The notes: generated from the letters alone by a model not told the origin. A stretch of DNA of 64,000 nt from Escherichia coli (GCF_003019035.1 NZ_CP027447.1); one strand, 5' to 3'; positions 52,936 to 54,153 are shown, counted from the first letter of the stretch. Program-made: numbers and translations.

Positions 52936-54153
52936 ATGGTTACAGTTGTCAGCAATTATTGTCAATTATCTCAAACCCAACTCAGTCAGACATTTGCAGA
53001 AAAATTTACTGTGACCGATGAATTACTGCAGTCTTTAAAAAAAACAGCGTTATCCGGAGATGAAGAAAGTATTGAGTTACTGCATAACATTGCGTTAGGT
53101 TATGATGAATTTGGGAAAAAAGCTGAAGATATTCTTTACCATATTGTTATAAACCCAACAAATGAAACCCTATCGATTATCCGACTTATCAAAAATGCCT
53201 GTTTAAAATTATATAATTTGGCACATACCGCAACCAACTCCCCCCTTAAACCAGTTGGTCCGGATAATTCAGATGATCTCCTGTTCAAAAAGCTATTCTC
53301 CCCGTCAAAATTAATGACAATTATCGGTGAGGACATTCCTCTTATATCAGAAAAACAGTCGCTTTCAAAGGTACTTTTAAATGATAAGAATAATGAACTG
53401 AGCGATGGTACAAACTTCTGGGATAAAAATCGTCAATTAACCACGGATGAAATAGATTGCTATCTTCAGAAGATCGCCGCTAATGCAAAAAATACTCAAG
53501 TCAATTATCCTACTGGTCTCTTCCTCCCCGATTCCAACAGCACTTACCTGGAAATCGCTCTCAATGATAATATTAAGAGCGATCCATCATGGCCGAAAGC
53601 AGTCCAGTTATTCCCCATAAATACTGGCGGACACTGGATATTAGTTTCGCTACAAAAAATAGTTAATGAAAAAAATAACACACAACAAATAAAATGCATC
53701 ATATTCAATTCATTACGTGCACTAGGCCATGAAAAAGAAAATTCACTTAAGCGCATCATTAATAGTTTTAATTCTGAACTCATGGGAGAAATGTCGAATA
53801 ATAATATAAAAGTTCATTTAACTGAACCCGAGATAATATTTTTACATGCCGATCTTCAGCAATACTTAAGCCAAAGTTGCGGTGCATTTGTGTGCATGGC
53901 AGCCAAAGAAGTAATTGAACAAAGGGAAAGCAATTCTGACAGCGCTCCCTATACGTTATTAAAAAACTATGCTGACAGATTTAAAAAATATTCAGCAGAA
54001 GAGCAGTACGAAATTGATTTTCAACATCGACAGGTAAATAGAAATTGTTATTTAGATAAATATGGCGATGCAAATATCAATGATTATTATAGAGACTTAG
54101 AAATAAAACACTCACAACCCCAAAATAGAGCATCAGGCAAAAGAGTAAGTTAA
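52936..54153 (+). CDS. elaD: Deubiquitinase-like cysteine protease ElaD (C48/ULP-type)
   Basis: 405-aa ORF, strongly AT-rich and Asn/Lys-rich; catalytic-type motifs GGHWILVS (His) and CGAFVC (Cys). Confidence 0.88.

Follow-up and report, generated by a model that had tools for sequence, protein, structure and literature searches.

The closest described relatives of the gene considered here are ElaD of Escherichia coli and SseL of Salmonella. ElaD proteins of E. coli K-12 and of enterohaemorrhagic E. coli (EHEC) hydrolyse the (iso)peptide bond at the C-terminus of ubiquitin (PMC1847702, PMC4961225). The K-12 enzyme is labelled by ubiquitin vinylmethylester and cleaves ubiquitin-7-amido-4-methylcoumarin, and both reactions are abolished by the C313S exchange (Catic et al. 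2007, PMC1847702). The catalytic Cys of ElaD likewise reacts with ubiquitin propargylamide (Ub-PA), and the enzyme is specific for ubiquitin (Pruneda et al. 2016, PMC4961225). SseL is a proven substrate of a type III secretion system (T3SS), being an effector deubiquitinase of Salmonella pathogenicity island 2 (PMC4961225). Here we compare these enzymes with the product of an open reading frame (ORF) at positions 52936–54153 of a 64,000-nucleotide stretch of E. coli DNA (NZ_CP027447.1, GCF_003019035.1), which we refer to as the window. A first reading of this DNA, the original prediction, had named the gene elaD and described it as an AT-rich gene of horizontal origin that encodes a C48/ULP-like protease.

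SseL also provides a functional frame for the individual parts of ElaD. In the SseL VHS domain W105 binds ubiquitin, and residues of this domain and of variable region 2 (VR-2) have been functionally tested (PMC4961225). The VHS-like N-terminal domain of ElaD is predicted to bind ubiquitin and to localise the enzyme, as in SseL (PMC4961225). An acidic residue pair of SseL was proposed by Pruneda et al. to be a possible reader of ubiquitin Arg72 (PMC4961225). Not all proteins of the CE clan behave in this way; some are acetyltransferases, and YopJ, AvrA and LegCE do not react with Ub-PA (PMC4961225). According to a 2026 preprint, the activity of ElaD is redox-sensitive, and the accumulation of Lys63-linked (K63) ubiquitin chains is suppressed in yeast (bioRxiv 10.64898/2026.06.26.730077).

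When all lines of evidence are considered, the window very probably carries an intact elaD allele whose product belongs to the ElaD/SseL subfamily of CE-clan deubiquitinases, and which was acquired horizontally long ago and has been inherited vertically since then.

Identity of the gene

By sequence comparison, the ORF is an ortholog of K-12 elaD (b2269). The deduced protein matches the NCBIfam equivalog for ElaD/SseL (NF008812) with 428.4 bits at a cut-off of 250 and covers profile positions 1–343 of 343, and it misses the SseL-specific equivalog (111 bits versus a cut-off of 624). It shares 90% amino acid identity with K-12 ElaD over the full length, and the genes are 94.4% identical at the nucleotide level. 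The profile score and the identity to b2269 bear out the name originally given to the gene. The blastn alignment to K-12 is collinear from menB through elaD and for a further 110 nt, and elaD lies 3′ of rbn in both genomes.

The same rbn-elaD order is found in E. coli SCU-301, a human commensal and the closest complete genome, which is 99.9% identical across 1.9 kb. In SCU-301, elaD is annotated as frameshifted on account of two single-base deletions that are not present in the window allele; these could be assembly errors. The window allele is rare. SCU-301 alone exceeds 99% identity, and the next alleles, including those of IAI39, SMS-3-5 and CE10, follow at 97.3%.

The K-12 and EHEC proteins (PMC1847702, PMC4961225) and the window ElaD have in common the two-domain architecture, the catalytic His, Asn, Gln and Cys residues and the locus 3′ of rbn, and K-12 elaD is similarly AT-rich (35.4% GC). 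They differ in detail. The window protein has 405 residues and that of K-12 403, owing to three extra residues in a loop at 106–108 and to a K-12 gene model that begins one Met earlier. Furthermore, the window allele shows a seven-residue haplotype switch in VR-2 (residues 196–207), and yfbK is deleted next to it.

Domain architecture and active site

The deduced protein is composed of two domains and a C-terminal tail (Table 1). The N-terminal domain is recognised by PF22103 (ElaD_SseL-like_N; E=1.8e-45, profile positions 1–108 of 108). For the catalytic domain, PF02902 (Peptidase_C48) matches residues 167–364 with E=7.5e-30 and 104.8 bits, compared with a gathering threshold of 20.7, over profile positions 2–216 of 217, and PF22102 (ElaD-SseL-like_C) matches with E=4.3e-28.

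We aligned the window ElaD with 30 divergent full-length relatives (22–31% identity) and with K-12 ElaD (90%). In this family alignment His233, Gln308 and Cys315 are invariant (31 representatives), and Trp234, Phe257, Ser259 and Gly316 are nearly so; all of them are present in the window protein. SseL residues were mapped through a phmmer alignment to PDB 5HAF (E 3.3e-25), in which the native SseL number equals the chain index plus 2. The numbering was checked on residues that PMC4961225 names, M159, D163/E164, Y183 and W105. Asp171/Glu172 of ElaD align with SseL Asp163/Glu164, the acidic pair; in VR-2, which contributes to the S1 site, Tyr191 aligns with SseL Tyr183 and Tyr204 with SseL Ile196. 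At the ubiquitin site of the VHS domain, Phe117 takes the place of SseL Trp105.

The original prediction had expected a His/Asp/Cys set of catalytic residues. His and Cys are indeed present, but the position of the Asp is occupied by Asn258, as in SseL. Catic et al. defined the CE triad as His, Asp/Glu/Asn and Cys (PMC1847702). In view of the SseL and family alignments, the active site of ElaD thus consists of a His-Asn-Cys triad plus an invariant Gln, which lies within the CE definition.

A sequence search for a solved ElaD structure turned up none. The AlphaFold model that was built on the family alignment has a mean predicted local distance difference test (pLDDT) score of 83 and a predicted template modelling (pTM) score of 0.81. 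It shows helices at residues 28–147 with pLDDT mostly 85–95, and its ends are disordered (residues 1–19 and 384–405, with pLDDT <50 for 384–405). The best PDB match of the model in Foldseek is SseL (5haf), over the full length, with E 1.9e-19 and a template modelling score of 0.76 by target. Further matches with E 2e-5 to 2e-3 and a probability of 1.00 are poxvirus I7L, SENP3/5/2/1/7, Ulp1, OtDUB and CidB; Legionella RavZ was also found. The model thus points to a CE fold, and together with the match along the PF02902 profile it confirms the proposed C48/ULP-like family.

SseL (PDB 5HAF, 5UBW) shares with ElaD the PF22103 and PF22102 domains, the fold, the His-Asn-Cys triad, the acidic pair and an aromatic residue at the VHS ubiquitin site. 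However, the two proteins are only 24–28% identical, and ElaD has an extra insert of about 20 residues (~275–298) as well as a C-terminal tail of 40 residues. The eukaryotic proteases Ulp1/SENP/NEDP1 and the bacterial CE deubiquitinases ChlaDUB1, RickCE, OtDUB and XopD share with ElaD the Peptidase_C48 profile, the CE fold and the order of catalytic residues. These enzymes are nevertheless only 10–16% identical to ElaD, act preferentially on SUMO or NEDD8 or are of dual specificity, have an Asp in the triad, and carry accessory domains and variable regions unlike those of ElaD (PMC4961225).

Predicted deubiquitinase activity and the effector question

As the window allele is 90% identical to K-12 ElaD and the catalytic residues are conserved, we infer that it has the same deubiquitinase activity. 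In the proposed mechanism, the thiolate of Cys315 would attack the Gly76 carbonyl of ubiquitin, with His233, oriented by Asn258, as the general base. Gln308 would sit at the oxyanion hole, a role that is suggested by analogy with ULP/SENP enzymes (PMC1847702). The VHS-like domain (residues ~29–140) is followed by a papain-like CE domain (residues ~167–365), in which Asp171/Glu172 are the counterpart of the SseL pair that may read ubiquitin Arg72, and VR-2 with Tyr191 and Tyr204 may form the S1 ubiquitin surface. Delivery into host cells and a host target are conceivable by analogy with SseL only.

Several points weigh against the functional part of this interpretation. The window allele carries 38 substitutions relative to K-12 ElaD, spread across all domains, and its activity is a predicted one. 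The gene is retained in K-12, a commensal that is not known to have a working T3SS. The secretion or translocation of ElaD and a host target are not reported in the cited ElaD literature, where they appear as a hypothesis only (PMC12575377). As to the eukaryote-targeting, effector-type activity that had been claimed for the gene product, the enzymology therefore stands, but translocation and a host target are unreported for ElaD in the cited literature.

One could take the lack of reported secretion and the retention of the gene in commensals such as K-12 as signs that ElaD acts inside the bacterium. It would then be an acetyltransferase like YopJ/LegCE, in line with the acetyltransferases known among CE-clan proteins (PMC4961225), or a protease of a bacterial substrate, and ubiquitin cleavage would be an in-vitro side activity. 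We consider this highly improbable. The reaction with Ub-PA is Cys-dependent and ubiquitin-specific, whereas YopJ, AvrA and LegCE are unreactive (PMC4961225); the protein combines a VHS-like ubiquitin-binding domain with the S1-site residues of SseL; and its expression in yeast lowers K63 chains (bioRxiv 10.64898/2026.06.26.730077). A deubiquitinase of the SseL type remains the preferred description of the gene product.

Base composition and a probable ancient acquisition

The base composition of elaD clearly departs from that of its surroundings. Its GC content is 35.0% (43.6, 31.0 and 30.3% at the first, second and third codon position, GC1 to GC3), compared with 50.9% for the whole window, and lies 2.9 standard deviations (sd) under the average over all windows of 1218 bp. 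A comparison of 46 long non-nested ORFs from the window (mean GC3 54.9%, sd 10.3) puts elaD last in GC and second to last in GC3. Under the codon usage of the window, the log-likelihood of its synonymous codons falls 1.4 sd short of the mean and is the fourth-lowest of the 46. The protein contains 9.1% Asn, 7.9% Lys and 7.6% Ile; Phe, Tyr, Met, Ile, Asn and Lys (FYMINK) together make up 33% of the residues versus 16–28% in the neighbours, and Gly, Ala, Arg and Pro (GARP) 15% versus 21–31%. The gene also holds seven A runs of 6–8 nt. The atypical, AT-rich composition, the richness in Asn, Lys and Ile and the long A/T runs that the original prediction had pointed out, along with the GC and codon-usage contrast to the neighbours, are all seen in these values. 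The low-GC trough extends from ~52.7 to 54.7 kb and takes in the spacer downstream of elaD. Silencing of elaD by H-NS may be inferred from the base composition; a literature search on H-NS control of elaD yielded nothing specific.

The distribution of the gene points in the same direction as its composition. Of 5426 complete E. coli genomes, 4186 contain at least 80% of elaD. A published survey gives a prevalence of 66.6% and reports the absence of elaD from phylogroups B2 and G (PMC12575377), which agrees with the presence/absence pattern observed here. In two elaD-negative (B2-type) genomes, rbn is followed by yfbK after 120 bp. The homology of the window to these genomes is lost at 52748, directly after the rbn stop codon, and picks up again within yfbK, 27 nt from its 3′ end, which makes for a clean boundary.

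A first homolog search yielded only E. coli alleles among the 120 matches listed, and the wider family was obtained from a search of a representative library. Outside Escherichia the ElaD family is tiny: a set of 1.84 billion proteins contains 81 representatives at 50% clustering, and many of these representatives are ElaD fragments. The nearest full-length relative from outside the genus is 35% identical. Named members occur in Salmonella (SseL), Providencia alcalifaciens, Providencia rettgeri and Plesiomonas. The loci of these genes are unrelated: sseL sits between glpC and rhmA (rhm operon), and the Providencia gene between modABC and acrZ-modE. Like elaD, sseL is AT-rich in a genome of ~52% GC (38% GC versus 52–54% in its flanks), though at a different chromosomal site, and the Providencia gene matches its host of 39% GC.

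In the compared Salmonella locus sseL lies at 8001–9023. The equivalent of the glpC-rhmA junction is located in the window at 27308–28222 on the + strand, ~25 kb from elaD, and carries a YhgA-like Transposase_31 gene. Since the window counterpart of the sseL junction holds this other gene, elaD and sseL are found at different sites of a single conserved neighbourhood.

The synonymous divergence (dS) between the window and K-12 helps to date the acquisition. For elaD it is 0.128, and the flanking genes menD (0.138), elaA (0.133), menF (0.101), rbn (0.066) and nuoM (0.079) give values in the same range (flanks 0.05–0.14). Because dS equals that of the flanks, elaD has travelled with them since the split from the K-12 lineage, and any transfer would be older. 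For the same reason the AT-richness is best seen as an old, non-ameliorated signature and not as a sign of recent import. From a phylogenetic perspective, elaD would have entered the variable interval between rbn and nuoN before the A/B1/D/E/F lineages diverged, and would afterwards have been inherited vertically under purifying selection that is weaker than on the core neighbours.

It is important to note that the search for vehicles of transfer speaks against acquisition. No mobility gene marks the elaD segment, no tRNA lies in 50–58 kb, and the repeats that flank elaD are at chance level only. A search of phages with the ElaD protein gave no matches, and of nine plasmid matches eight are typed as non-mobilizable and several are chromosome-sized (1.4–4.9 Mb). 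Since carriage by phages or genuine plasmids was not seen, the case for transfer is built on composition and distribution only, and a donor is not identifiable.

Two observations from these searches are added for completeness. In the plasmid collection, the 126-kb record NZ_CP058715.1 of E. coli M172-1 (pangolin) holds an elaD copy besides the chromosomal one. A 30-nt imperfect inverted repeat (52700–52729 / 54240–54269, 73% complementary) flanks the stretch that elaD-negative strains lack. We rejected it as a chance feature, because it has a seed of 10 nt, both arms encode '..ELA..' (C-termini of rbn and yfbK), and five such pairs occur in 3.9 kb.

The lack of mobility genes, tRNA and real flanking repeats, the absence from phages and true plasmids, and a dS that equals the flanks and gives no sign of recent import would also suit a native Escherichia gene, whose AT-richness was shaped by low expression, mutational AT bias and the functional amino acid composition of the product. 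This scenario is very unlikely. Effects of expression level would not account for a GC3 as low as 30% when the mean is 55%; the whole rbn-nuoN interval is low in GC and differs from strain to strain in the genes it contains; the relatives are scattered, at most 35% identical and found at unrelated loci in other genera; and sseL in Salmonella shows the same contrast to its flanks. Composition and distribution thus make an ancient horizontal acquisition of elaD well supported. The horizontal origin that had been proposed is plausible for a family that is tiny and patchy, that sits at different sites in Escherichia, Salmonella and Providencia, and that shows presence/absence polymorphism within E. 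coli.

Selective constraint on elaD

The ratio of non-synonymous to synonymous divergence (dN/dS) from K-12 is 0.33 for elaD versus 0.00–0.08 for the flanking core genes. These values indicate that elaD is under real purifying selection, yet weaker than that on its core neighbours. The raised ratio and the frequent pseudogenes elsewhere also count against a fully functional reading, as they allow a gene that is only weakly useful.

Taken further, the same data could mean that elaD is a slowly decaying relic which is unused in this lineage, is intact by chance and drifts toward a pseudogene. Its dN/dS is four-fold or more above that of the flanking core genes, elaD pseudogenes are found in HS, 536, F11 and Shigella (PMC1847702), and some branches have alleles with premature stops (PMC12575377). 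The closest relative, SCU-301, is annotated as frameshifted; in the window itself yfbK is deleted and yfbM frameshifted; and the seven A runs render elaD prone to frameshifts. We nevertheless regard a relic as improbable. The dN/dS is well under 1 across 1.2 kb, and the seven invariant or near-invariant residues of the family, catalytic ones included, are all retained. A frame of 405 codons has stayed open at 35% GC, where stops arise easily, elaD is kept at full length in ~77% of complete E. coli genomes, and the 1-nt deletions of SCU-301 could stem from assembly. An intact gene under relaxed but effective constraint accords better with these observations.

Allelic variation in VR-2

A cluster of allelic differences from K-12 lies in the S1 ubiquitin surface. 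In codons 184–223 (53486–53605) all 13 nucleotide differences from K-12 are non-synonymous (13/13). Tyr204, the equivalent of SseL Ile196, is His in K-12 ElaD. In a set of 121 E. coli ElaD proteins the patch comes in essentially two versions, with one apparent mosaic allele (P0015), and may for this reason go back to a single event. As proof of positive selection the patch was rejected: ~76% of sites are non-synonymous, so that 13/13 has P ~0.03 and is of weak significance only. That the two haplotypes reflect diversifying or balancing selection which tunes substrate recognition between lineages, rather than drift, is accordingly a speculative idea that we hold to be unlikely, if less so than decay of the gene.

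Gene neighbourhood and the variable rbn-nuoN interval

In the window, menD, menF, elaB and elaA (− strand) are followed by rbn, elaD, yfbL and yfbM (+ strand) and then by nuoN. The ORF map and the genome comparison thus agree with the placement of elaD beside elaB, elaA and rbn. The flanking core genes are 97–99% identical to K-12, for which reason the idea that the window comes from outside E. coli proper was rejected. The Shine-Dalgarno sequence lies 6 nt upstream of the elaD ATG, and a consensus scan upstream of elaD gave no convincing promoter and no consensus sigma-70 match. The coordinates of all features are compiled in Table 1.

Table 1. Features of elaD and its immediate surroundings in the window
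Feature	Position	Strand	Remarks
elaD coding sequence	52936..54153	+	intact ORF, 405 codons + stop, ATG at 52936; ortholog of K-12 b2269 by sequence
rbn-elaD intergenic spacer, 190 bp	52746..52935	+	holds Shine-Dalgarno AGGAG (52925–52929) and presumed elaD promoter
N-terminal all-helical accessory domain, residues 29–140	53020..53355	+	VHS-like as in SseL; Pfam PF22103
CE-clan (Peptidase_C48 / Ulp1-like) catalytic domain, residues 167–365	53434..54030	+	Pfam PF02902, PF22102
Polymorphic patch in VR-2 (S1 ubiquitin surface), residues 196–207	53521..53556	+	7 amino acid differences from K-12
Catalytic His233 codon	53632..53634	+	aligns with SseL His223; invariant in family alignment
Asn258 codon, third triad member	53707..53709	+	aligns with SseL Asn242; column N, D or S
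Gln308 codon, presumed oxyanion-hole glutamine	53857..53859	+	aligns with SseL Gln278; invariant in family alignment
Catalytic Cys315 codon TGC	53878..53880	+	equals K-12 Cys313, SseL Cys285; invariant
ElaD-specific C-terminal tail, residues 366–405	54031..54150	+	absent from SseL; predicted long helix, then disorder
Putative hairpin, perfect 15-bp inverted repeat with 4-nt loop	54170..54203	.	starts 17 nt past elaD stop
yfbK 3′ remnant, last ~13 codons	54224..54263	−	ends in ...IELAGGVTDISQ and stop; blastn to K-12 ends at locus position 8035
yfbK 5′ remnant, first ~44 codons	54284..54415	−	interrupted by stop (MRKK, then stop); blastn resumes at K-12 locus position 9592

Downstream of elaD, yfbK is gone between elaD and yfbL. 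Window position 54263 corresponds to K-12 position 8035 and 54284 to 9592; within yfbK, which starts at 9723, these points lie 40 nt from the 3′ end and 132 nt from the 5′ end, respectively, which means that ~1556 bp between the remnants have been deleted. As both ends of yfbK remain, the 386-bp elaD-yfbL spacer is a deletion scar. Of the 5426 complete E. coli genomes, 2577 cover at least 80% of this spacer, O157:H7 included. It had been correctly noted that yfbK is missing at the junction, but this is not peculiar to the strain; judged by its spread among genome sequences, the yfbK-less junction is an old and common haplotype.

At least three arrangements were encountered: elaD with intact yfbK (K-12), elaD with the yfbK scar (window, O157), and yfbK without elaD (the two elaD-negative genomes). 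Moreover, yfbN-yfbO-yfbP (~2.56 kb, 39–43% GC in K-12) are absent between yfbM and nuoN (56118–56134), and the same holds for SCU-301 and the two elaD-negative genomes. The low GC and the strain-variable gene content thus extend over the whole rbn-nuoN interval. In the window, yfbM (55614–56117, + strand) is frameshifted after ~codon 125, with the ORF ending at 55991, and K-12 and SCU-301 encode 167 residues; either yfbM has truly become a pseudogene in this strain, or the frameshift is an error of sequencing.

The inverted repeat past the elaD stop codon is kept in K-12, and the RNA fold of 54150–54250 has −37.6 kcal/mol (z = −7.6). A terminator scan did not call the hairpin at 54170–54203, which has no U tract and hence is not a canonical intrinsic terminator. 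It probably served to terminate or stabilise the transcripts of elaD and yfbK, which were once convergent, although the missing U tract leaves the terminator role to inference.

Other low-GC stretches of the window

Besides the elaD region, a low-GC (35–41%) cassette of three genes lies between gyrA and ubiG at 4600–8079. It encodes an enzyme of the enolase superfamily (MR_MLE), a transporter of the major facilitator superfamily and a GntR/FCD regulator; PADLOC returned no defence matches in the cassette. In K-12 the gyrA-ubiG junction is a short spacer only. The cassette is thus probably an accessory metabolic islet. Smaller low-GC stretches were seen at 12001–13000 (5′ part of a 1254-residue ORF), at 19001–21000 (including a LysR-type regulator, 19420–20319) and at 35001–36000 (including an ORF of the histidine phosphatase family, 35238–35897).

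Implications

The biochemistry of ElaD has been known since 2007; work of 2016 added its specificity and domain logic, and a survey of its distribution in E. coli followed in 2025. Biochemistry, homology-based structure and distribution were all known before, and the gene described here is an ordinary one for E. coli. For annotation, the result means that the elaD allele of the window strain is intact and has its catalytic residues, with little import beyond that. If the less likely case of selection on VR-2 were true, the tuning could concern ubiquitin versus NEDD8, the type of ubiquitin chain, or the host species.

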